Positions 47,552-59,505 of a DNA stretch of 64,000 bases are shown in pieces (within the stretch, counting starts at the first letter, position 1; each line of letters begins with the position of its first letter). The translations under genes were made by a program, and so were the position numbers. A model generated the notes under the pieces. It was given only the letters and a program-made list of their open reading frames with translations. It did not search any database and was not told the origin of the DNA. Source of the DNA: Patescibacteria group bacterium (GTDB taxonomy: Bacteria > Patescibacteriota > Patescibacteriia > Veblenbacterales > UBA10138); assembly GCA_041648575.1 (NCBI GenBank), contig JBAZOT010000005.1, positions 17,161 through 81,160 of the forward strand, written 5' to 3'.

Positions 47552-47757
47552 CTATTTAGCAATTAATAATTATTTAATCTAAAACATCCCTGAAATCTTC
47601 GGGGTGTTTTATTTTTGAATTTTTTAAATAAAATTAAAGAGGAAAATTTTAAATAAAAAAGGTTGACAAAAGGCTATTTTTATGCTAAAATTAGTGTATA
47701 AATGCAATAAAATCAATATAATTTAACAAATAATTTTAACATTAAATACAAAAATAT

Positions 47758-50700
47758 ATGAAAAGATTTATTCAGGTTTTTAATAGCCTAGTTGGTATTA
47801 TGGCTATAGCTTTTTTATTTTCACAGTTTGCTAATGCAACTGTGGAAGTTATTATTCATGATTTGGAGCAAGCAAGTAAAAAAGCAGCGGTTACATTATC
47901 AACTAATAATATTGATCAAGGAAAAGTTCTTGGTGTTACAAACGAAGTGGTGTTAGCAGCAACCACCCCGATACCTTGTGCTGATTGTGATACGCCTACA
48001 TATTACACTTTGACTGTTGCCAAAACTGGTTCGGGTACAGTTACCAGCTCGCCTGTTGAAATTAATTGCGGCAGTACCTGTTCAGCTATTTATACTTCGG
48101 GTGTAGCCGTAACACTTACAGCTACACCAGCGTCAGGTTTTGTTTTTAGCGGTTGGGGCGGGGTATGTAGCGGGACTGGTTCATGTACACTAACGATGAA
48201 TAGTAATAAGAACGTGACGGCGACGTTTGGTACGGCGACCAAATTGGTCACGCTCAACATTGCTCGAATTACCTCGCCAGCATATGGGACAGTTACCAGC
48301 TCGCCTGCTGGTATAAACTGTGGTGATATTTGTGGCGCGGTTTTTCCTGTAGGTACTGCCGTTACGCTAAAAGCATCTCCCGGACAGGGGTATATATTTA
48401 CGGGTTGGCGCGGTTGTCAGCCAGAAGGCCTTCAGCTCACCTGCACTGTAACATTGAACAGCGACACAACGGTGTCAGCCAATTTTGCTACTAACACCTT
48501 TTCTATAGATGTTTATAAAACAGGCACGGGCTCGGGTACCATAGTTAGTTCACCAGTTGGTATTAATTGCGGATCGGATTGTAATTCAGCAACTTTTAAA
48601 GGCACACCCGGTTCTTCGGTCACTTTTACAGCCACCGCAGTAGCTGGTTCAAAATTTTTAGGTTGGGGCGGGGCATGTATAGGTAACCAAACTAGTTGTA
48701 CGGTTATCTTAGCAGATCGTCCTACTAATCATTATCCTCGAGTGATGGCTAATTTTATACCCACCGATGTTCCGTTGGCTGATTTAATTATTACATCAGT
48801 AGAGATAAAGGGAATCCCTAAAGTTGGCGATTTTGGAATTAATGGCTGGGTTACTATTAAAAATCAAGGTAGTGGTACGGCAAAATTTCAAGTTCCAGTG
48901 GGCACAGAACACTATTTTGCTCCAAGTATATTAAATGTTTCAGTATTTAAATCGCAATTGGCGTCGGATTATGTTATGGTAGCCGGTTCTGGACCAGCCG
49001 CAGTCAGCACGGGTGACGGAACTATTATTGCGCCAGGCGAATCAAAAGAATATGATTTTTTCACCATGACTGATTCCAGATTATATACCAGGGATGATTT
49101 TCTAGGCACGGCTGGCGAAAAAACGTTATATTTTATGGTTGATATAGAAAATCTAGTAAGCGAATCTGATATTATTAATAATATTTACACAAAAAAATTT
49201 ACTGTTAGTGCGACTACATCATCTATCAGTTTAATAACTCCAAAAAGTGGAGAGGTGTGGCGCATAGGGAGTACGTATACAATTCAGTGGCAGAATAGTG
49301 ATGTCGCGCCAACTACTCGGAGCGTCCAACTGTATACTAATCCAGTTGGATCAGCCACGGTTTGCTTAATAGCGAATAGCGTACCCGATAGAGGTTCATA
49401 TACATGGACTATACCAACGACCATAGATAGAAATTGTTGGGGTACACATGTTTTGACCGTACTGCGCTTGGACGGCTCAAATATCAAAGGCCAAAGCGAG
49501 GTCTTTACCATAAGCAGTACCCCCAGCTCGATGTTTAAGATCGCCGAAATATCAACTTTCGCGCCATCTTATGTGCCAGGAGCCAATGTTAACTTTAAGG
49601 TGCGTGGCATTGAGCCCGATGGCACAGCTACGGCATATGAAGAGGGGTTCAGGGTAAGTGGCCAGATTTATTTTGGTAGTGAGCCATATACACCCGCAAG
49701 TCCACAAACTGTATCGTACGAGCCAACCGGCTGGTGGCAATTAACTCTTATTGCGCCAAGCAGCAATGGTAGCTACAAAATGCGTGTCGTGTTAAGCTGC
49801 TCGTTTGATACCGGTGTGGCCTGTGCTGAAAAGTATGGTACAGGTGGGCCGCAAGTGGAGCAAATGGTGCCGTTTATGGTTGGTACAACCTCGTCGGGTA
49901 TTAATATAATAACCCCGAATGGCGGGGAGCGGTGGGTGGTTGATAAAACATATACTATTGGTTGGAGTACTAAGGGTGTGCCAACATCGTATTACAACTC
50001 GTACCCGTTAATTGAGTTGGTTAGCGGTGATAGTAGCGATAGCGCAGTACTCACAAATTGGCGTTCTCAAGATAAATTTGCTAACAGTGATGATAGTCGT
50101 TTTGGGAGAACAAGTTTTACTGTTTCCAAAACGCTAGCGGGTAAAAATTTTTATGTGCGAGTGAGCGTGGGTGATAACACTGGTGGTTTAAGTTTCCGCG
50201 GTACGACAGCTGGTCAAGTAACAGTAGTTACTAGTCCTCCTTGGCGGGTGTGCGCCGGCTCTCCGGAAATGGTTCGTCGTTCAGCTCTCGGTACAGATGA
50301 ATTTGGACGTTTGGGGCTAGATATTTCTTCTCATCCAGAAATTTTGCGTTATCGCATTCAATGGTTCTCTGGTGGTTGGTCAGATTGGTACATACCAGGT
50401 GTAGATGATGTTGATTGGAAGACAGATGACATTACTAAACCGCATCGTGTTTGGGCATATTTTGGCGATCATAATCATGAGTTTGAGAAGTGCAGTACTA
50501 CAGTAGGGAATAAACCGGATTTCATAGTAGAAGATATAAATGTTGTTAATCGTTCAACAAGCGGTGAAAAGGTATTTTCGGTGAGATATAAAAATATTGG
50601 TAGCATAGCATTAGCCCAAATGCTGACTGTTGAATTAGTAGATACGGATACTGGCGATATATACTCGCAATCAATTGGTGGTGGCGATATACCATCTGGA

Positions 50701-52872
50701 TTTTCATATGATCTAGAGATGGCGCAAGCTATTCGTGAGCAGACCCGTGCTCGTTTTTACGTAAAGGCAAAAGTCGATTCTACGAATAAGTTTGTCGAAT
50801 CAAATGAAAATAATAATGAATTAACAAAGACTATATCTTTTACTCCTGTTACTAGTGGCAAAATTATTGATGATTCTAAAGCTGATAATGATCCAGTATT
50901 ATTGCGACGGTCTAACGGTGATTTGATAGTAGTTTATACTAGCGAACAAGCTGGAGCGAACATTGGTGCTGCTTATTCCAAAATATCTAAGGATAATGGC
51001 AAAACTTGGCAAGGTCCATATAAAATAGTTGATAGTTGGGGTAAGATAGATTTAATTGAAAATATTTCCAAACAATTAGTGGTGATAGCCACTGATTTAA
51101 CGCCCGGTAGAATTGGCGGCGGTTCAGTAACTTTAGTTTCTATTGATGGAGTAACCTGGACCAACCAGCGCCCAGTAACAGTAACGTCCTTAAATGATGG
51201 TTATGGCTCCATTGAGCAGTCGAGTGATGGTAGTTATTATGTTACTTTTAATGTTTCAAGCGGAGTTTGGCAGTCTTATATAACAAAATCTACAGATTTA
51301 ATTACCTGGGAAGCGGCTTGGCCAGTATCCGTTGATGGTGCACCAATTTATGGCTCATCAATAATGCAAGCGTCTGATGGGACATATTATTTAGTTGGTT
51401 ATACTTCTGTATTAGCTGATGAATCAACTATAACTCCAGCATTGGTGGCTTTACGTTCAACCGATGTCAAAAATTGGGTGAAAGATAATTCGGTAAATAT
51501 TTTAGCACACTCTACTATGGGACAGCATATGATCGAGATGCAAGGAATTCCCACATTATTTTATGCATTTGATCCGGCTTTTGGACAAGCCAGATTATAT
51601 TATGCATCTAAAAAAAGCAGTTGGAATTCACCACAGGTGGCAGCACATGGCCCATTTCCTTTTGGTGTAAGTTCTGTGGTTATGTCCGATGGTAGCGTGG
51701 CAATAGCTTATATGAAAGAAGTTAATGGACAGCGGGATATTTTCTTCCAAAATATAGGAGGATTGATAGTTGGTGGTACACCTGATCTTGTTGTTAGCAG
51801 TATTTCATTAGAACCCTCAGTTCCGGTTGTGGGTCAGGAAGTTATTATTAAAGCTGTGGTTAAAAATATTGGTACAGTAGATGCATTCATTCTTAATTCC
51901 CAACCCTTATCAGGACCAACTGCCAACTTAAAAATTAGTGGTTTTGGATATAATTATGTTGAAGGAACAGGTGGAGCAATTGGCACAAACGATAATCCCC
52001 CCATTAAACCAGGAAGCACGGCAACATATATTTTTGGAAAGCATTCTACTATAAAATTATCCAATATTGGGCCTTATAGTATCAGTGTGACAGCTGATGG
52101 TGGCTCAAGTGACGCTGGTGGCATTGGTGTGATTGACGAATCAAATGAAGGAAATAATACTTTAGTTAAGACAATTATTGTGGATAATAAGAAAGTTGAT
52201 TTAAAATCTATATCAGCGGAAGAGTCTGTGCAGCAAAGAATTCAACAATTAGAATATAAAGTTTCTGAACTGGAGCGACAATTAGTAGAAAACGAAAAGC
52301 AACTTGCTCAAAAAATTGATCAGCAATTAACCAACCGTGTAGCTGGAAAAATTCTTTTGCAGGTAGAAGGAAACGGTGAAGCTTGGTATGTAGATAAAGA
52401 TACTCAGAAAAAGTTTTATCTAAAAGATGGCAATACTGCTTATACTGCCCTGCAAGCTTTTGGCTTGGGTATTTCTAATGAGAATCTAGCCAAAATTCCA
52501 GTATCTACTTCAGAACAAGTGGTAGCAAAAGACAGCGATGGCGATGGCTTGGATGATCAATTTGAAACAGCTATTGGTACTAATCCAATGAATAAGGACA
52601 CAGATAATGATGGATATGATGATGGCATGGAAATATCTAGTGGTTATTCGCCATTGGGACCAGGTAAAACAACAGTTGATGCAAGTTTAGTTAAAAGATT
52701 AGAAGGAAAAATAATTTTGGCAGTTAATAAGCACGGCGAAGCGTTTTATATTAGTAACGGAATAGCGCATTACTTAAAAGATGGCGCCTCGGCTTATCAA
52801 ATAATGCGTAATCAATCATTGGGTATTACTAATAACGATCTACGTAAAATTCAGGTGGGTGAATTTGAATAA
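47758..52872 (+). CDS. giant secreted/surface protein (1704 aa): divergent InlB B-repeat x4, CARDB-like, BNR/sialidase-like propeller, coiled coil, Ca-binding TSP3-like repeats and a duplicated C-terminal module
   Basis: Signal peptide; four repeats of GSGTVTSSPxxINCGSxC...GWxGxC (divergent InlB B-repeat); CARDB-like DLIITSVEIKG / DLVVSSISLEPSVPVVGQEV; Asp-box SKDNGKTW; DxDxDG repeats; C-terminal tandem roughly 40-aa motifs. Confidence 0.8.
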   Translation: MKRFIQVFNSLVGIMAIAFLFSQFANATVEVIIHDLEQASKKAAVTLSTNNIDQGKVLGVTNEVVLAATTPIPCADCDTPTYYTLTVAKTGSGTVTSSPVEINCGSTCSAIYTSGVAVTLTATPASGFVFSGWGGVCSGTGSCTLTMNSNKNVTATFGTATKLVTLNIARITSPAYGTVTSSPAGINCGDICGAVFPVGTAVTLKASPGQGYIFTGWRGCQPEGLQLTCTVTLNSDTTVSANFATNTFSIDVYKTGTGSGTIVSSPVGINCGSDCNSATFKGTPGSSVTFTATAVAGSKFLGWGGACIGNQTSCTVILADRPTNHYPRVMANFIPTDVPLADLIITSVEIKGIPKVGDFGINGWVTIKNQGSGTAKFQVPVGTEHYFAPSILNVSVFKSQLASDYVMVAGSGPAAVSTGDGTIIAPGESKEYDFFTMTDSRLYTRDDFLGTAGEKTLYFMVDIENLVSESDIINNIYTKKFTVSATTSSISLITPKSGEVWRIGSTYTIQWQNSDVAPTTRSVQLYTNPVGSATVCLIANSVPDRGSYTWTIPTTIDRNCWGTHVLTVLRLDGSNIKGQSEVFTISSTPSSMFKIAEISTFAPSYVPGANVNFKVRGIEPDGTATAYEEGFRVSGQIYFGSEPYTPASPQTVSYEPTGWWQLTLIAPSSNGSYKMRVVLSCSFDTGVACAEKYGTGGPQVEQMVPFMVGTTSSGINIITPNGGERWVVDKTYTIGWSTKGVPTSYYNSYPLIELVSGDSSDSAVLTNWRSQDKFANSDDSRFGRTSFTVSKTLAGKNFYVRVSVGDNTGGLSFRGTTAGQVTVVTSPPWRVCAGSPEMVRRSALGTDEFGRLGLDISSHPEILRYRIQWFSGGWSDWYIPGVDDVDWKTDDITKPHRVWAYFGDHNHEFEKCSTTVGNKPDFIVEDINVVNRSTSGEKVFSVRYKNIGSIALAQMLTVELVDTDTGDIYSQSIGGGDIPSGFSYDLEMAQAIREQTRARFYVKAKVDSTNKFVESNENNNELTKTISFTPVTSGKIIDDSKADNDPVLLRRSNGDLIVVYTSEQAGANIGAAYSKISKDNGKTWQGPYKIVDSWGKIDLIENISKQLVVIATDLTPGRIGGGSVTLVSIDGVTWTNQRPVTVTSLNDGYGSIEQSSDGSYYVTFNVSSGVWQSYITKSTDLITWEAAWPVSVDGAPIYGSSIMQASDGTYYLVGYTSVLADESTITPALVALRSTDVKNWVKDNSVNILAHSTMGQHMIEMQGIPTLFYAFDPAFGQARLYYASKKSSWNSPQVAAHGPFPFGVSSVVMSDGSVAIAYMKEVNGQRDIFFQNIGGLIVGGTPDLVVSSISLEPSVPVVGQEVIIKAVVKNIGTVDAFILNSQPLSGPTANLKISGFGYNYVEGTGGAIGTNDNPPIKPGSTATYIFGKHSTIKLSNIGPYSISVTADGGSSDAGGIGVIDESNEGNNTLVKTIIVDNKKVDLKSISAEESVQQRIQQLEYKVSELERQLVENEKQLAQKIDQQLTNRVAGKILLQVEGNGEAWYVDKDTQKKFYLKDGNTAYTALQAFGLGISNENLAKIPVSTSEQVVAKDSDGDGLDDQFETAIGTNPMNKDTDNDGYDDGMEISSGYSPLGPGKTTVDASLVKRLEGKIILAVNKHGEAFYISNGIAHYLKDGASAYQIMRNQSLGITNNDLRKIQVGEFE

Positions 52873-52893
52873 CACCTGATTAAAATTAAATAT

Positions 52894-55800
52894 ATGCATA
52901 AAAAACTTTTAATTATCCTAATATTTGGCGTTGTTTTGATTGGCGGTCTTTGGTTTGGTAATAATCCAGATTTTTGGTTTGCTTATAAAATAATTTTCCA
53001 ACCAAACGCACGGGTGGCGGGGGTGCAATTAGTGGTGGATACATCTGCAATTTCTATAATTAATCCAGCTAATGGTGTTAATTTTTTAGTTGGCACTGTA
53101 CCGGTTGTTATGGATATTACTAACACAACAAGCGTGAGAGAGTTTTTATGGAATTGGAATAATCAAAGCTATACCATATACAACAATTCTTTGGTGGCCA
53201 TGTTTAATTTTGACAACATTACCGCCTTAGGCGAAAGTTTATCATCTACTACCGTAACCGATGCTTCTTTGTATGCTAACAAAGGAACTTGTACTAATTT
53301 AGGTACGGGGTGCCCTTGGGCAACTGGGAAATATGGCCAGGCGATGAATTTTACAGGCACAACAGGAAATATTTTAATTAACACTAGCTCTAGTCTTAAT
53401 GCCTTGAGTAGACATACAGTAGAATTGTGGGTTAACTCTAGAAGCAATTCTCTTCTCTCTACTATATTTAATAAAATGGGAGAAGGTGAAGGATTTAGAA
53501 TTACTAAGCTTTCTGATGGAAGAATTGCTTACGATCTCGCCAATGGGCGGGGGTTAGGAGCCACTCAACTTATTTCCAATCAAGCAATTCCTATAAATAT
53601 CTGGACCCATATTGTAGTTGCCTATGATGGAACTGTACAACGTATGTATATTAATGGCGCTCTTCAATCTGGTTCTATTAACACCACAGCTTTTGTTTCC
53701 AATACCTTTAGTCCACTTGAGATCGGTTATGCTAGCTGTTGCGGAATTCTTAATGGATACAACGGGTTATTGGATGAAGTAAAAGTATGGAATAGGGCAC
53801 TAAGCGTAGCTGAAATTCAACAAGCCTACGCCTCCGCCCTTAGAAAATATGATACTAATAAATGGAGTTTTGAAAGTATACAAACAAATCTTTCCAGTGG
53901 TACTTATACACTCTCAGCTTCTGTGACAGATACTTTGGGTAATACAAACTCATCTAGTATACAAACTATTACAGTAAATTCTTCACTGCCTGCTGATACT
54001 CAATCCCCCTCTACGCCAACAGGATTAACCATAACAACCATATCCTCATCTCAACTTAATCTTGCTTGGGCTGCTGCTACTGATAATGTTGGTGTGGCAG
54101 GATATCGTATTTACCGAGGCGGCAGTCAAATAGGAACTTCAAATACTGCCTCGTATTCCAACACTGGCCTTACTGCCGCTACCACCTATAGCTATACTGT
54201 GTCTGCTTATGATGCGGCTGGAAATATATCTTCTCAATCTGCCTCTGTTTCTGGAACGACGCAATCAGTTTTGTTATCGGGAGCGATAATCGTGGATCAT
54301 GCTTCTGTTGATCGATTCAGCCAGATTCCTGCTTCAGTAATACAATCTGCTCGTAATTTAAGATCTCTGCTTAGGCACGCATCTGTTGGCGGAAATATTA
54401 ATGATGGGTTAAATGATTTATATAATCAAAATACGATTTATAATAGGAATCAATGGTCATTCCAGAATAGGGGTAATGATGGCGGGGTTGCAAAAATTAA
54501 CGATTTTATAAGCCAAGTTCAAATTCAAAGTGGAAATTATGATATTTTTGCAATGAAATTCTGTTTTATTGATATAGATGTGTCTACGCTTTATGCACAA
54601 TATAGAGACGCGATGTTGCAATTAGAAAGGAATTATCCTAATAAAAAGTTTGTGTGGTGGACACAGCCCTTGAGAGATGGTGGTCCGCCAGCTCAGGTAA
54701 TTCAGGCTTTTAACAATAACGTAAGAAGTTATGCGGCACAGAATAACAAGATACTTTATGATATAGCTGCTATTGAATCTCATCGCGCAGACGGAACTTT
54801 GTGTACTTCAAATGGTTATGAAGTGCCATGTACTGAATGGTCGCGTATTCCTGATGGTGTTAGTGATGGCAGTCACTTAGGAGTAGCTGGTCGTCAGAGA
54901 GCCGCAAAAGCACATTGGTATTTAATGGCTCGACTTACAGGGTGGAGCCCAGATTCGCTTTCTATCGACACCCAATCTCCTTCTACTCCCACGGGACTTA
55001 CTGTAACTCCCATCTCCTCGTCTCAACTCAATCTCTCTTGGACTGCTTCTACTGATAGTGTAGGTGTAGTTGGGTACCGTATTTATCGAAGTGGCACTCA
55101 AATAGGAATTTCAAATACTACCTCGTATTCCAATACTGGCCTTACTGCCGTTACCACCTACAGTTATGCTGTTTCTGCTTACGATGCCGCAGGAAATATT
55201 TCTTCCCAATCCGCCGCCGTTTCTGGAACAACACGGGTGGTTGCAAGCGATATTATAGCCCCAGTTGTTTCTGTTATTGCTCCTGTAAGCGGATTTACGG
55301 CCTCTGGAACAATTACATTATCTGCTTCCGCTACTGATAACGTAGGTGTGGCAAGTGTTCAATTCCGCGTAGCTGGCTTAAATGTTGGTTCTGAAGATAC
55401 TGTCTCGCCTTATTCTATTTCTTGGAATTCTGCTTCGATGGTTAATGGTTCTCATCTAATAACCGCTGTGGCACGGGATGCAGCAGGGAATTCTGCTGTT
55501 TCTCTTTCTGTTTCAATTATAGTTTCAAACACAATTGTCGCAGTAAATTTTAAAAACGTGAATCATACATATCCCCGTATCGGATTATTGCAATGGGGCG
55601 GAGGAAATGTGGATTGGTTTTGTCGGTATGATTTAGTGATGCTTCCAGAGGTAGAAACATATAAAGCACGGCAGATGCAGACGCGATGCCCGTCTACCTA
55701 TATGATCGCAACGAATGACTGGACACAAGGAGGTATTTTTCAGCCTCCGGGCCACGCGGATGTATTACCTGATGTATGGTATCAAAAACAATCTACTGGT

Positions 55801-58800
55801 GTACGCGTGCCTACCGGGACTAGGGGAATGATGAATTTTACTAAGTACACGCCGAAATACACGGGTTATATTAGTAGTCCAGCGTTTGTCGATTTTGAAA
55901 TGCCAACCAGTATTTATATTGATAATAAAACTTATACCGAGGCAATTTCCGATGCATTTTTGGATTATGTGGATTGGAGCGCATGGGATGGAATCAACAG
56001 TGATGGATCATGGCCATTCCCTTATAACAGTGGGGATATAGATCTGAATGGGAACGGTATCAACGATTGGCCCGAAAATGGTTGTGCAGTTCCATGCACA
56101 AGTGGTAGTACTGGTTTTGAGCAGGCGTATTTAGCGATTCAGAAAGAATGGATTATTGGCAACGAAGCGCTGGTTCAGTCCATTCGCGACAAAATGCAAC
56201 AAAAATTGGGTGGGCAGAAAATAATCACATACTGGACGATTAGTAATTCTGATCCAGCGCATGGTTCATTAATGAATGCAAGTCTTGTAAATGGTGTAGG
56301 ATGGGAAATGGCGTCCTATATGCCAGGGACCAATTGGAATAATTTTATTCGGAATAACGCTGCATTCAATACTTTAAGCAGGAGTCCGAAAATTAACTGG
56401 GTGAATAGTACAATTTTGGGAGATGAGGCAAACGCTCCTGTCGGAAATCCCAAGAATTATTTTAGATTTATGAGATATATGCTCACTCAGACACTACGAG
56501 GAGATAATTATTTCATGCAGGAAGACGGAGGGCGTTTTCTGGATCGTGTTGGATGGAACCCGTATAACGAACATTACTGGCAGAATTGGTATGACGAATT
56601 TGACACAAATCTCGGTTATCCCACAGGATCGGCACAGAGTCTTGGCAACGGTACATGGATCCGGTTCTTTGATAATGGTGTTTCAATAACGAACCCCACT
56701 ACTGCCACACAGACCGTAACGGACACAAATCTTCGGACACTTGCCGGATACAGCGGGCCCTACTATCGGTTCAGAGGAAATCAGGATCCCACCTGGAATA
56801 ATGGTCAATTATTTAGCTCGGTTACTTTGATTTCTAGTGCGGCCGCAGGAAGCGTTTCTCCGGTAGGTGACGGAATCTTGTTGTTCCGAACGCCCACAAC
56901 TGTTGTTTCTGATGTGATTATTGATAATGCATATACAGGGACTTCTCCGGGATCTCCAACTGCCGTTATGACTGGATTTTCATGGGATGAAGCAGCTAGC
57001 GTCAACTATAAGCATCCATCTTATTATGTTGGTTGGAGAACAGACGGGGATTCCATAACCCATAAACAGCATTATGCTTCCGCGGGTAGTGGTTCAGCGA
57101 CTGCAGTATTTCGTCCCACAATTAATGTACCGGGGCAATACCGTGTGTATGAATGGCACGGGTGGTATGGAGTCAATCAAACAAACATGGAAGCCACCAA
57201 TGTTCCTGCCTCGATTGTGCATTCTGGAGGAACTGCCAATCTGGCTATTAATCAACGCGTAAACCCTGGTCAATGGAATTTGCTCGGAACATATTCTTTT
57301 AATAACACCCACGCTTCTGTAACAATTACAAACAATGCCAATGGCTATGTTTTGGCGGATGCATTTAAATTTGTATACGCTGGTTCAACTAATAGTTCTG
57401 ATACCACCCCACCAACAATTTCTATCGCCAGTCCTGTAGCCAATCAATTTTTTACAACTAATTCAGCAGCTGTTTCAGGCACTGCGTTTGACAATACATC
57501 AGTTTCTTTAGTCCGAGTGCGTGTTAATGGAGGAACTTGGCAAACTGCTTCTGGAACAGCATCTTGGAACGTTACTCTGGCTCTATCTTCAGGTAGTAAC
57601 ATAATTGAAGCGCAAGCTATTGATGGTTCAACTCTTAATTCAGCCATACAGAGCGTAAACGTGATTTACAATGTGACATCATCACCAGTTGATACCACTC
57701 TACCAATCATATTTATTACAGCACCAACATCAAACCAAATATTTAGTACTTCAACTATTACAGTTTCTGGTACAGCCTCAGATAATATGGCAGTTTCATC
57801 TGTACGAGTTAGAGTGAATGGATCGGCCTGGCAAACTGCCACTGGCACAACCTCTTGGCATACTACTTTAACTTTATCTTCAGGTAGCAACATTATAGAA
57901 CTGCAAGCTATTGATAGTTCTGAATTAATATCAACAATTATCAGCCGGACAGTTATATACCAAATACTCGATACTGTTTCGCCAGAAGTTTCTATTACTG
58001 AACCTTTGACTGATTCTATAATTTCTGGCTCAAATGTAACTATATCAGCAACCGCTACTGATAATGTAGGTGTGGTTGGCGTTCAGTTTCAACTTAATGG
58101 TACTAATTTAGGAACTGAATTAGCAGTTAATCCTTATACTATAAATTGGGATACAACTGGTGCTATTGATAAAACATATACATTAATAGCAGTAGCCAGA
58201 GATGCTGCAGGTAATCAAACGGTATCTTCCGCAATTAGTTTTATAGTAAAAAATATTATACCAGTACGCCCTTTATTAGAAGACGAAATTCTACCAATAA
58301 TTATTATTTATTCACCTAAAACTGGCTCTATCGTGTCTAATATTATTACTCTGTTTGCTAAAGCGTTCGATAATGTTGGTGTAGCTGATGTTCAATTTAA
58401 ATTAAATGGTGTTGATATTGGAAATAAAATTACTACTAGCCCGTATACTATCAAATGGGACACAACTCAAAGTACTAATGGTCAGTATCCTATTACTGCT
58501 GTAGCCAGTGATGCTGTTGGAAATAAAGCCACTTCTACATCTGTAATAGTGGTAGTTAATAATATACCAATCAAAACAACCGGCGGTGGAGGTGGAAGTA
58601 TTACAGTTGATTCAAAGTCTAATATTTTTATTCCTGCGCCAGCTACTCAAAAAAATCCTACTTTTTTTGCTACTCCTGTTATTCCCGCAACATCAATAGC
58701 TGTTGTGGCGCAAGAAAAATTGGTTAGCAAGGCTATTGATACTAAACTCACCAATCGTCTTAAAGGGCGTATTTTGCTTCAAGTTGAAAATCATGGCTAT

Positions 58801-59292
58801 GCTTGGTATTTAGATCCTAAAACTGGTAAACGTTTTTACTTAAAAGATGGTAATACCGCTTATACTGCCTTGCAAGCTTTTGGCTTGGGTATTTCCAATG
58901 AAAATTTAGCCAAAATTCCAGTATCCACCTCAGAGCAAGTTATAGCTAAAGACAGTGATAGTGACGATTTGGATGATCAATTTGAAACAGCTATTGGTAC
59001 TGATCCAAATAATAAAGATACAGACGGCGATAGTTATGAAGACGGTATGGAAGTAGCCAGTGGTTATTCACCATTGGGCGCAGGCAAACCCGCGATTGAT
59101 GCTAATTTGGTTAAGAGGTTAGAAGGAAGAATAATTTTGGCAGTTAATAAGCACGGCGAAGCGTTTTATATTAGCAATGGAATAGCGCATTACTTAAAAG
59201 ATGGCGCTTCAGCTTATCAAATAATGCGCAACCAATCATTGGGCATTACTAATGACGATTTAAGAAAAATTCAGGTGGGTGAATTTGAATAA
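52894..59292 (+). CDS. giant surface protein (2132 aa): LamG/ConA-like lectin, Fn3 x2, a large TIM-barrel-like central domain, multiple bacterial Ig-like domains, TSP3-like repeats and the same duplicated C-terminal module as the upstream gene
   Basis: N-terminal transmembrane/signal sequence; LDEVKVWNRALSVAEIQ (LamG_3-like); two Fn3 repeats (PSTPTGLT...AYDAAGNISSQS); repeated Ig-like ATDNVGV...Q/F modules; the C-terminal 190 aa are about 90% identical to the C-terminus of the 47758-52872 protein. Confidence 0.8.
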   Translation: MHKKLLIILIFGVVLIGGLWFGNNPDFWFAYKIIFQPNARVAGVQLVVDTSAISIINPANGVNFLVGTVPVVMDITNTTSVREFLWNWNNQSYTIYNNSLVAMFNFDNITALGESLSSTTVTDASLYANKGTCTNLGTGCPWATGKYGQAMNFTGTTGNILINTSSSLNALSRHTVELWVNSRSNSLLSTIFNKMGEGEGFRITKLSDGRIAYDLANGRGLGATQLISNQAIPINIWTHIVVAYDGTVQRMYINGALQSGSINTTAFVSNTFSPLEIGYASCCGILNGYNGLLDEVKVWNRALSVAEIQQAYASALRKYDTNKWSFESIQTNLSSGTYTLSASVTDTLGNTNSSSIQTITVNSSLPADTQSPSTPTGLTITTISSSQLNLAWAAATDNVGVAGYRIYRGGSQIGTSNTASYSNTGLTAATTYSYTVSAYDAAGNISSQSASVSGTTQSVLLSGAIIVDHASVDRFSQIPASVIQSARNLRSLLRHASVGGNINDGLNDLYNQNTIYNRNQWSFQNRGNDGGVAKINDFISQVQIQSGNYDIFAMKFCFIDIDVSTLYAQYRDAMLQLERNYPNKKFVWWTQPLRDGGPPAQVIQAFNNNVRSYAAQNNKILYDIAAIESHRADGTLCTSNGYEVPCTEWSRIPDGVSDGSHLGVAGRQRAAKAHWYLMARLTGWSPDSLSIDTQSPSTPTGLTVTPISSSQLNLSWTASTDSVGVVGYRIYRSGTQIGISNTTSYSNTGLTAVTTYSYAVSAYDAAGNISSQSAAVSGTTRVVASDIIAPVVSVIAPVSGFTASGTITLSASATDNVGVASVQFRVAGLNVGSEDTVSPYSISWNSASMVNGSHLITAVARDAAGNSAVSLSVSIIVSNTIVAVNFKNVNHTYPRIGLLQWGGGNVDWFCRYDLVMLPEVETYKARQMQTRCPSTYMIATNDWTQGGIFQPPGHADVLPDVWYQKQSTGVRVPTGTRGMMNFTKYTPKYTGYISSPAFVDFEMPTSIYIDNKTYTEAISDAFLDYVDWSAWDGINSDGSWPFPYNSGDIDLNGNGINDWPENGCAVPCTSGSTGFEQAYLAIQKEWIIGNEALVQSIRDKMQQKLGGQKIITYWTISNSDPAHGSLMNASLVNGVGWEMASYMPGTNWNNFIRNNAAFNTLSRSPKINWVNSTILGDEANAPVGNPKNYFRFMRYMLTQTLRGDNYFMQEDGGRFLDRVGWNPYNEHYWQNWYDEFDTNLGYPTGSAQSLGNGTWIRFFDNGVSITNPTTATQTVTDTNLRTLAGYSGPYYRFRGNQDPTWNNGQLFSSVTLISSAAAGSVSPVGDGILLFRTPTTVVSDVIIDNAYTGTSPGSPTAVMTGFSWDEAASVNYKHPSYYVGWRTDGDSITHKQHYASAGSGSATAVFRPTINVPGQYRVYEWHGWYGVNQTNMEATNVPASIVHSGGTANLAINQRVNPGQWNLLGTYSFNNTHASVTITNNANGYVLADAFKFVYAGSTNSSDTTPPTISIASPVANQFFTTNSAAVSGTAFDNTSVSLVRVRVNGGTWQTASGTASWNVTLALSSGSNIIEAQAIDGSTLNSAIQSVNVIYNVTSSPVDTTLPIIFITAPTSNQIFSTSTITVSGTASDNMAVSSVRVRVNGSAWQTATGTTSWHTTLTLSSGSNIIELQAIDSSELISTIISRTVIYQILDTVSPEVSITEPLTDSIISGSNVTISATATDNVGVVGVQFQLNGTNLGTELAVNPYTINWDTTGAIDKTYTLIAVARDAAGNQTVSSAISFIVKNIIPVRPLLEDEILPIIIIYSPKTGSIVSNIITLFAKAFDNVGVADVQFKLNGVDIGNKITTSPYTIKWDTTQSTNGQYPITAVASDAVGNKATSTSVIVVVNNIPIKTTGGGGGSITVDSKSNIFIPAPATQKNPTFFATPVIPATSIAVVAQEKLVSKAIDTKLTNRLKGRILLQVENHGYAWYLDPKTGKRFYLKDGNTAYTALQAFGLGISNENLAKIPVSTSEQVIAKDSDSDDLDDQFETAIGTDPNNKDTDGDSYEDGMEVASGYSPLGAGKPAIDANLVKRLEGRIILAVNKHGEAFYISNGIAHYLKDGASAYQIMRNQSLGITNDDLRKIQVGEFE

Positions 59293-59505
59293 CACCTGAT
59301 TTAAAACAAAAAAACAAAACTGTTCCGACTAATTGGAGCAGTTTTGTTATAATTAGGACATAGGCGTTTAGCCTACTCTGCGTCATTGCGAGGATCCGCC
59401 AGTTGGCGGAGACGAAGCAATCTTAATAAAACACCAGTACCAACAAGAGATTGCCTCGCTGAAGCTCGCAATGACACTAAACGTGTAAATTCTAATAATA
59501 CTAAT

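Follow-up and report, generated by a model that had tools for sequence, protein, structure and literature searches.

Two giant genes with a shared 3' module

A 64,000-nucleotide stretch of a Patescibacteria group bacterium (NCBI GenBank assembly GCA_041648575.1, contig JBAZOT010000005.1, positions 17,161 to 81,160), referred to here as the window, carries two adjacent giant open reading frames (ORFs) for surface proteins, ORF A and ORF B, which correspond by protein identity to NCBI MFA4937086.1 and MFA4937087.1, respectively. Both proteins end in the same module of about 183 residues, which is composed of a domain of ~55-60 amino acids (designated D; first copy D1), two TSP3_bac calcium-binding repeats and a second D domain (D2). 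The bodies ahead of the module are unrelated in their Pfam domain content, as a preliminary description of the locus (made from the sequence alone) had proposed. The coordinates of all features are collected in Table 1.

ORF B starts 21 nt past the stop codon of ORF A. Neither a promoter nor a terminator was found in this intergenic stretch (52873-52893), and the gap is AT-rich and so short, without an obvious Shine-Dalgarno sequence, that ORF B would depend on read-through from ORF A. The sole strong candidate promoter for the pair is a consensus-like site ahead of ORF A, while an intrinsic-terminator hairpin closes the unit after ORF B, and the two genes are apparently co-transcribed from the one to the other.

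Table 1. Features of the ORF A-ORF B locus, with positions in the window (HMM, hidden Markov model; AF2, AlphaFold2)
Feature	Position	Strand	Description
Promoter-like site (candidate)	47663..47691	+	TTGACA, 17-nt spacer, TG, TAAAAT; 11/12 consensus matches; consensus match only
ORF A, 1704 aa	47758..52872	+	Signal peptide, InlB-B repeats, Kre9_KNH, CARDB, BNR-like propeller, terminal module
Helical, coiled-coil-like lead-in of copy A (predicted)	52216..52323	+	QQRIQQLEYKVSELERQLVENEKQLAQKIDQQL; from sequence, with an AF2 helix at module residues 8-14
D1 domain, copy A	52324..52503	+	D-domain HMM E 9.8e-28
Repeat H, left copy	52420..52884	+	D1 C-half, linker, D2, stop codon and 12 nt more; 86.5% identical to 58840-59304
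Calcium-binding linker, copy A	52525..52689	+	Two TSP3_bac repeats (DSDGDGLDD..., DTDNDGYDD...); Pfam PF18884
D2 domain, copy A	52684..52857	+	D-domain HMM E 3.7e-22
ORF B, 2132 aa	52894..59292	+	N-terminal hydrophobic segment, LamG, fn3, Big_7, Golvesin_C, GHL15-like, terminal module
D1 domain, copy B (chimeric)	58744..58923	+	D-domain HMM E 5.6e-28
Recombination breakpoint in ORF B module	58833..58842	+	FYLKDG codons of D1
Repeat H, right copy	58840..59304	+	Runs on into the ancestral 3' flank of the ORF A locus
D2 domain, copy B	59104..59277	+	D-domain HMM E 1.1e-21
Intrinsic-terminator hairpin	59313..59348	+	16-bp stem, RNA fold -30.9 kcal/mol, z = -6.4; closes the ORF A-ORF B unit

At the nucleotide level, the two 3' ends (52300-52884 and 58720-59304) align without gaps at a constant offset of 6420 bp and are 79.8% identical over their whole length. 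Homology sets in at about 52324 (codons LTNR), remains at 58% as far as 52419 and then rises to 86.5% over the 465 bp that constitute the direct repeat H; the final 200 bp are 91.5% identical, and exact runs of 45 (the longest), 36 and 33 nt are common to both copies. The 100 bp on either side of the repeat show 28-35% identity, which is the chance level (random ungapped window pairs: mean 26.5%, maximum 35%). Thus, the shared 3' module described earlier is a real repeat lying far above chance, although the identities then quoted (~88% overall and >95% in the last 200 bp) were too high. Identity had also been said to continue 12 bp past the stop codon. The match does run through the TAA and beyond, but at 12 of 13 nt, with nine identical nucleotides (CACCTGATT) followed by one mismatch (A versus T) and AAA; this match past the stop merely marks where the duplicated segment ends on its right side. 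At the protein level, 133 of the last 150 residues of ORF A and ORF B are identical, and the window holds four copies of the D motif (two per module) and no others.

The ORF B module is a chimera

Comparison with relatives establishes that the two halves of the ORF B module have different ancestries. An alignment with the ORF A module, its ortholog in the relative L001 (CAZGYI010000005.1) and the module of an ORF B ortholog (on L049) yielded 165 informative sites, at which ORF B matches either its own ortholog or ORF A/L001. To the left of 58833, 41 sites side with the ORF B ortholog and three with ORF A/L001, and ORF B is 92% identical in nucleotides to L049 versus 48% to copy A. To the right of 58842, the proportion is reversed to 10 versus 111 sites, and ORF B shares 86.3% identity with copy A, against 78.4% with L001 and 63.6% with L049 (Fisher p = 1.2e-25 for the split). 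The ORF B module is therefore of ORF B lineage upstream of the breakpoint and of ORF A locus lineage downstream of it, and the earlier suggestion that recombination underlies the shared module is supported by this breakpoint. Furthermore, the two copies of H (86.5% identical) are closer to each other than copy A (78.9%) or copy B (78.4%) is to L001; paralogous copies thus resemble each other more than they do their ortholog, as in concerted evolution, with a tract boundary at 58833-58842.

The genomic context of the relatives is equally informative. L001 is syntenic with the window (66-81% amino acid identity) in the order trypsin-like protease (81%), ORF A ortholog (1497 aa, module 81% identical), p59386, p60127, ZIP and DUF4015, and ORF B is absent from it. 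The sequence following copy B, including the terminator, is orthologous to the flank of the single ORF A-type module in L001 and in L003, a contig of the metagenome-assembled genome (MAG) JBDRTU01. The ORF B ortholog (P0266 in GCA_020057885.1; 63% amino acid identity in the best local alignment and ~85% nucleotide identity where alignable) lies between HisRS and rpsU/YqeY and is preceded by a terminator, a TTGACA/TAAAAT promoter and a GGAG ribosome-binding site of its own (L049 9800-10000).

Could the resemblance reflect constraint on a conserved protein domain, with neither duplication nor recombination? The family is strongly conserved and nonsynonymous divergence (dN) is very low in the D domains (0.01-0.02), as such an account would have it. 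Nevertheless, a blastn control on adjacent module-bearing genes elsewhere (genomes L005, L013, L011/L019) detected no similarity between their modules, so constraint alone does not yield 86% nucleotide identity; in addition, the identity extends over 12 of 13 nt into non-coding sequence, the copies are closer mutually than to the ortholog, and the breakpoint is sharp (p = 1e-25). Constraint alone was hence rejected on the strength of the breakpoint and the blastn control, and its probability is next to nil.

An assembly artefact (a collapsed repeat or a chimeric join arising from short metagenomic reads), which the preliminary description had named as a way in which the duplication might prove false, is scarcely more credible. 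The window does stem from a MEGAHIT k141 metagenome contig (ENA, 64.5 kb), and a related MAG breaks at the module. However, the copies differ at 13.5% of positions and their longest common run of 45 nt is far below k = 141, leaving the assembly graph unambiguous at the repeat; both reading frames are intact, and the same two proteins bear consecutive accessions on an 85-kb contig of an NCBI Patescibacteria MAG and recur in JGI and GEM records. The run length and the 85-kb contig rule out assembly collapse, and an artefact of any kind is very improbable.

Several further observations concern the locus and its relatives. A 7-bp hairpin (UCAGGUG...CACCUGA; -10.1 kcal/mol, z = -2.2) spans the stop codon in both copies (52851-52879 and 59271-59299); having a G-U wobble in L001 and being lost in L003 and L049, it is probably incidental as a functional element, and it is not a structured attachment site conserved in L003 or L049. 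An integron-type or other site-specific cassette would have led one to expect an adjacent recombinase, but no recombinase domain was found in the ten neighbouring ORFs, and an exact-pattern search for the module 3' end in JGI metagenomes found none. Composition was uninformative as to a foreign origin of ORF B: the bodies of the giant genes (47758-52323 and 52894-58743) have a GC content of 41% against a window average of 37.5%, with normal GC at third codon positions (GC3), and both correlate less well than controls with the rest of the window in tetranucleotide usage (ORF A 0.85, ORF B 0.80; control regions 0.94-0.98), a signal probably due to amino acid composition rather than foreign origin. 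The second CARDB region and the BNR/sialidase-like propeller of ORF A (50545-51780, residues ~930-1340) have no counterpart in L001 6077-10570, which looks like a domain-level insertion or deletion in an otherwise orthologous surface protein.

Among the relatives, L002 and L003 (both contigs of JBDRTU01) share exactly 141 identical nt within the linker of the module (L002 4838-4978, L003 1-141); L002 ends in this overlap with an ORF A-like body, while L003 runs from it into the p59386/ZIP flank. Such a configuration is a typical MEGAHIT k141 graph branch and may mean that JBDRTU01 contains either another, almost identical copy of the module or a strain variant. Seven records (L001, L006, L008, L009, L017, L020 and L023) are titled 'uncultured Gammaproteobacteria bacterium'; for L001, the title looks like a placeholder or mislabel because the contig is syntenic with the window, whose proteins NCBI labels Patescibacteria. 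Two genes downstream of the ORF B ortholog, L049 (16505-25502) carries a giant gene of >3600 aa with T4SS_pilin, Big_5, TIG and InlB-B domains, the InlB-B region of which shares 36-38% amino acid identity with that of ORF A.

The D-TSP3-D family and its putative role

The linker of the module is readily recognised. It scores 34.9 bits against the Pfam TSP3_bac family (PF18884; cut-off 25) over two stretches (E 1.4e-8), its profile matches the calcium-binding region of Staphylococcus aureus Bap (7c7r/7c7u, E 4e-6), and Foldseek aligns it to 7c7u with a probability of 0.99 and an rmsd of 0.9 Å over 45 columns; the two motif copies separated by TSP3-like repeats that were described earlier are thereby confirmed, with a motif length of ~55 aa. 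In the AF2 model of the whole module (predicted local distance difference test, pLDDT, 89.8; predicted template modelling score, pTM, 0.78), each D domain is predicted to fold into three strands, a helix, a strand and a short helix, with a further helix ahead. When D1 is modelled alone, pLDDT falls to 66.5 and the fourth strand is lost, so the two D domains may be read as one interdependent unit. A lead-in similar to that of copy A precedes the module in many homologs (67-homolog consensus RIxxLxYxxSxxExxVxxxEKxL...DxxLxxRLxG).

The D domain itself appears to be an undescribed family. The D regions have no Pfam or NCBIfam match at E <= 1, and no recurrent family of either database emerged from 44 D-domain sequences scanned at E <= 10. 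Nothing was found among PDB sequences with a profile built from 44 sequences, PHROGs gave no significant match (best E 0.026), and neither did Foldseek searches of PDB and BFVD, where the top match, the binding domain of endolysin LysIME-EF1 (6ist), is not significant (E 4.3, probability 0.09). A phage origin, or descent from an endolysin binding domain, was discarded given the PHROGs result and the lack of INPHARED or IMG/VR matches. The domain also has no sequence match to known wall-anchoring families (SLH, CWB2, LysM, PG_binding_1-3, SH3b, GW, choline-binding, SPOR, PASTA), and literature searches on the motif and on Patescibacteria surface anchors returned nothing relevant. The initial impression of a motif matching no nameable domain therefore holds for Pfam, NCBIfam, PHROGs, PDB sequences and Foldseek against PDB and BFVD, and the known anchoring domain that might have explained the module away was not encountered.

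Despite having no name, the family is large. When D1 was compared by phmmer with 1.84 billion representatives (clusters at 50% identity), 3242 clusters matched at E <= 1e-3, of which 2634 also did so at E <= 1e-10, and the organisms named in the sources are all Patescibacteria (Falkowbacteria, Uhrbacteria, Buchananbacteria, Komeilibacteria, Parcubacteria). In a retrieved set of 264 proteins, all but one (263) have exactly two D domains; the linker is TSP3-sized in 233, whereas in 28 it is short. As to position, 175 of these proteins carry the module at the C-terminus, 86 at the N-terminus (straight after a hydrophobic, signal-like segment) and three internally, and a hydrophobic N-terminus is present in 192 of the 248 module proteins that start with M. 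The module is joined to dozens of architectures, in keeping with the proposal of module shuffling among unrelated proteins. In 139 scanned module proteins, the partners include CARDB (27 proteins), the Fn3-like Pur_ac_phosph_N (23), fn3 (14), InlB-B (7), trypsin-like protease (6), Kazal inhibitor (about 5) and DsbA/thioredoxin (3), in addition to PKD, TIG, PG_binding_1, C39-like peptidase and the S-layer domain; Dockerin_1 is matched by two, and in one family of YkuD L,D-transpeptidases the module is N-terminal. Among the closest matches, the most frequent architecture is a protein of ~320 aa with a signal peptide, D-TSP3-D and a C-terminal domain of ~110 aa without a Pfam match (...LGGYKVTINFYLDKQPDGKWLISKI). 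This N-terminal-module protein is conserved across many Parcubacteria (P0059, P0103, P0108 and about 60 others) and may be a core Parcubacteria envelope protein.

The most likely role of the module would be a calcium-stabilised, non-covalent retention of secreted proteins on the cell envelope, through the wall, the S-layer or a docking partner; candidate ligands would be peptidoglycan, another wall polymer, the S-layer or a protein partner. Envelope attachment is proposed because the module is non-catalytic and paired, occurs at either terminus, and is fused to unrelated passengers, including enzymes acting on the cell's own envelope, with no hydrophobic tail. A C-terminal sorting signal (LPXTG/sortase, type IX secretion system C-terminal domain or PEP-CTERM) does not fit, since the 86 N-terminal modules, together with the charged ends of both window proteins (...KIQVGEFE, with no hydrophobic C-terminal tail), constitute a distribution of surface retention or docking. 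Three points weigh against envelope retention: no binding ligand or partner was identified for the module, no sequence or structural relative of the D domain supports wall binding, and no peptidoglycan hydrolases are present among the 139 partner architectures.

A competing proposal is a calcium-dependent docking or adhesion unit that would bind a scaffold protein in the manner of a dockerin, or the surface of a host cell. The paired central calcium loops resemble the duplicated calcium-binding repeats of dockerin, the two Dockerin_1 matches point the same way, and the partners are mostly adhesin-like Ig folds (CARDB, Fn3, PKD). One relative also possesses PG_binding_1, which would be redundant if the module bound peptidoglycan, and cultivated Patescibacteria are described as living attached to other microbes (PMC11623550). 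On the other hand, neither window protein matches Dockerin_1 at E <= 1 and there is no known cohesin-like partner. Moreover, the fusion partners of the module include housekeeping enzymes whose site of action is the cell's own envelope (YkuD L,D-transpeptidase, DsbA/thioredoxin, trypsin-like proteases), and its commonest carrier is the small ~320-aa protein spread across many Parcubacteria. Docking or adhesion is accordingly rather unlikely, while retaining some weight.

Origin of the tandem and its significance

The reading that we favour, with moderate confidence, joins both lines of evidence: a terminal D-TSP3-D module with a likely role in envelope retention, and a direct repeat that is the scar of one old recombination placing ORF B behind ORF A. 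ORF B is present here and absent from L001, and the direction that we infer is insertion at this locus rather than deletion elsewhere, the exact mechanism being likewise conjectural. ORF B, with the 5' part of its own module, would have entered the ORF A locus immediately downstream of ORF A. One joint would have been homologous, through a crossover or template switch inside D1 at the conserved FYLKDG codons, and the other would lie 9-12 nt past the ORF A stop codon. Such an event would have duplicated the 465-bp H, giving ORF B its chimeric module, and would have removed the promoter of ORF B, leaving both genes under the ORF A promoter and terminator. Two template switches during replication or repair would be the most parsimonious mechanism because copy A is wholly of the resident type; other options would be Campbell-type integration of a 6.4-kb circle with a module 3' end already resident-like, or a double crossover with a donor already carrying the tandem. 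Under strong purifying selection, the copies would since have accumulated mainly synonymous differences.

As regards age, the copies of H diverge by 13.5% as against 21% between copy A and L001 (about 60% of it), and the event should therefore be younger than the split from L001, yet not recent. Synonymous divergence (dS) between the copies leads to the same conclusion, being 0.38 in D2 (dN 0.021), 0.63 in the C-terminal half of D1 (dN 0.013) and 1.12 in the linker (dN 0.137), and saturated in the N-terminal half of D1, where the lineages are non-homologous (dN 0.46). Of the preliminary proposal of 'recent gene conversion or module shuffling', the shuffling and a breakpoint stand, while 'recent' does not, as dS is far from zero (0.38-1.12). 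The near-identical protein ends are mainly due to purifying selection, with dN at 0.01-0.02 in the D domains. As exact runs of up to 45 nt persist, a repeat-mediated loss of ORF B is still conceivable.

Not all of the evidence sits comfortably with a single insertion. The direction is deduced from a single syntenic relative and a single ORF B ortholog, the latter at another locus, and if L001 had lost ORF B while the copies here evolved in concert, the same arrangement would be seen. The dS values are also uneven along the module (0.38 in D2 versus 1.1 in the linker), and the linkers of A and B are 78% identical, no closer than either is to L003 (82-84%). A single clean duplication may hence be too simple, and the uneven dS and the linker pattern may reflect later patchy exchange or sampling noise.

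These points bear directly on an alternative in which ORF A and ORF B are long-standing tandem paralogs subject to ongoing or recent gene conversion, with repeated homogenisation of their 3' ends, and L001 lost ORF B through recombination between the repeats. Such a history would account for the patchy look of the module, in which A and B are closer than orthologs in the C-terminal half of D1 (88.6% versus 81-83%) and in D2 (92.3% versus 82-84%), and not in the linker, and for the dS that varies along it. Direct repeats make deletion easy, and the 141-nt overlap of L002 and L003 points to another, nearly identical module in their MAG as well. Nevertheless, dS of 0.38-1.1 excludes anything recent, the ORF B ortholog has a promoter of its own and occupies an unrelated locus, and the linker difference (78% versus 83% over 150-165 sites) is within sampling noise. 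Furthermore, one sharp breakpoint, together with a 3' part of copy B that is continuous with the ancestral flank, fits a single event. Ongoing conversion between old paralogs is thus unlikely, and the reverse direction in general (an ancestral tandem, followed by deletion in L001 and concerted evolution here) is less likely than insertion.

The proposed retention module can be set beside several known systems. Like the SLH, CWB2/Cwp, LysM, choline-binding and GW modules of monoderm bacteria, it is non-catalytic and repeated, and is found at either terminus of unrelated passengers; in both cases these include proteases and peptidoglycan-acting enzymes, with no membrane anchor or sortase signal. 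It differs from them in that the D domain has no sequence match to them and gave no significant fold match in the Foldseek searches, in the exact pairing of domains with (usually) a TSP3 calcium insert, and in its restriction to Patescibacteria among named members. With type I dockerin it has in common its small size, its terminal position, two calcium-binding loops and its attachment to many different extracellular proteins; however, the window module has no Dockerin_1 match, the loops are of the TSP3_bac type and flanked by beta/alpha D domains, and there is no known cohesin partner. TSP3-type calcium repeats also occur in region B of S. aureus Bap (7c7r, 7c7u) and in OmpA-family linkers. 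The module linker matches those of Bap in sequence and structure, but the relation to Bap is limited to the 55-aa linker, the D domains being not found in Bap. As for gene capture, the slpA/slpB genes of Lactobacillus acidophilus and the sap genes of Campylobacter fetus combine variable surface bodies with a conserved anchor-coding segment that provides the homology for recombination. The present locus resembles them in having a conserved, putatively anchor-coding segment that serves recombination between genes. Unlike in those systems, both genes are intact and apparently co-transcribed, and no silent copy, invertase or sign of ongoing switching was found, the tandem going back to one old event.

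Patescibacteria are abundant, mostly uncultured and contact-dependent on other cells, and the way in which they display surface proteins is largely unknown. With its 3242 clusters, the module ranks among the most frequent terminal units of the proteins that they secrete, yet it is unnamed in domain databases or the searchable literature. A tandem repeat alone is an ordinary product of recombination; the interest of the locus lies in an abundant, unnamed module and in a clean, module-mediated gene capture, which constitutes a documented case of DNA coding for a presumed anchor acting as the substrate for capture of a 6-kb surface-protein gene. The defined module provides a handle for predicting the Patescibacteria surface proteome, as well as a testable candidate for a lineage-specific anchoring mechanism. 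More tentatively, as a possibility and no stronger, D-TSP3-D could be an unrecognised, Patescibacteria-specific envelope-targeting system that may bind a lineage-specific wall polymer or S-layer, with its coding DNA serving as a portable homology handle for the capture and loss of surface genes in expressed operons. If true, this would offer these episymbionts a way to vary their surface repertoire.

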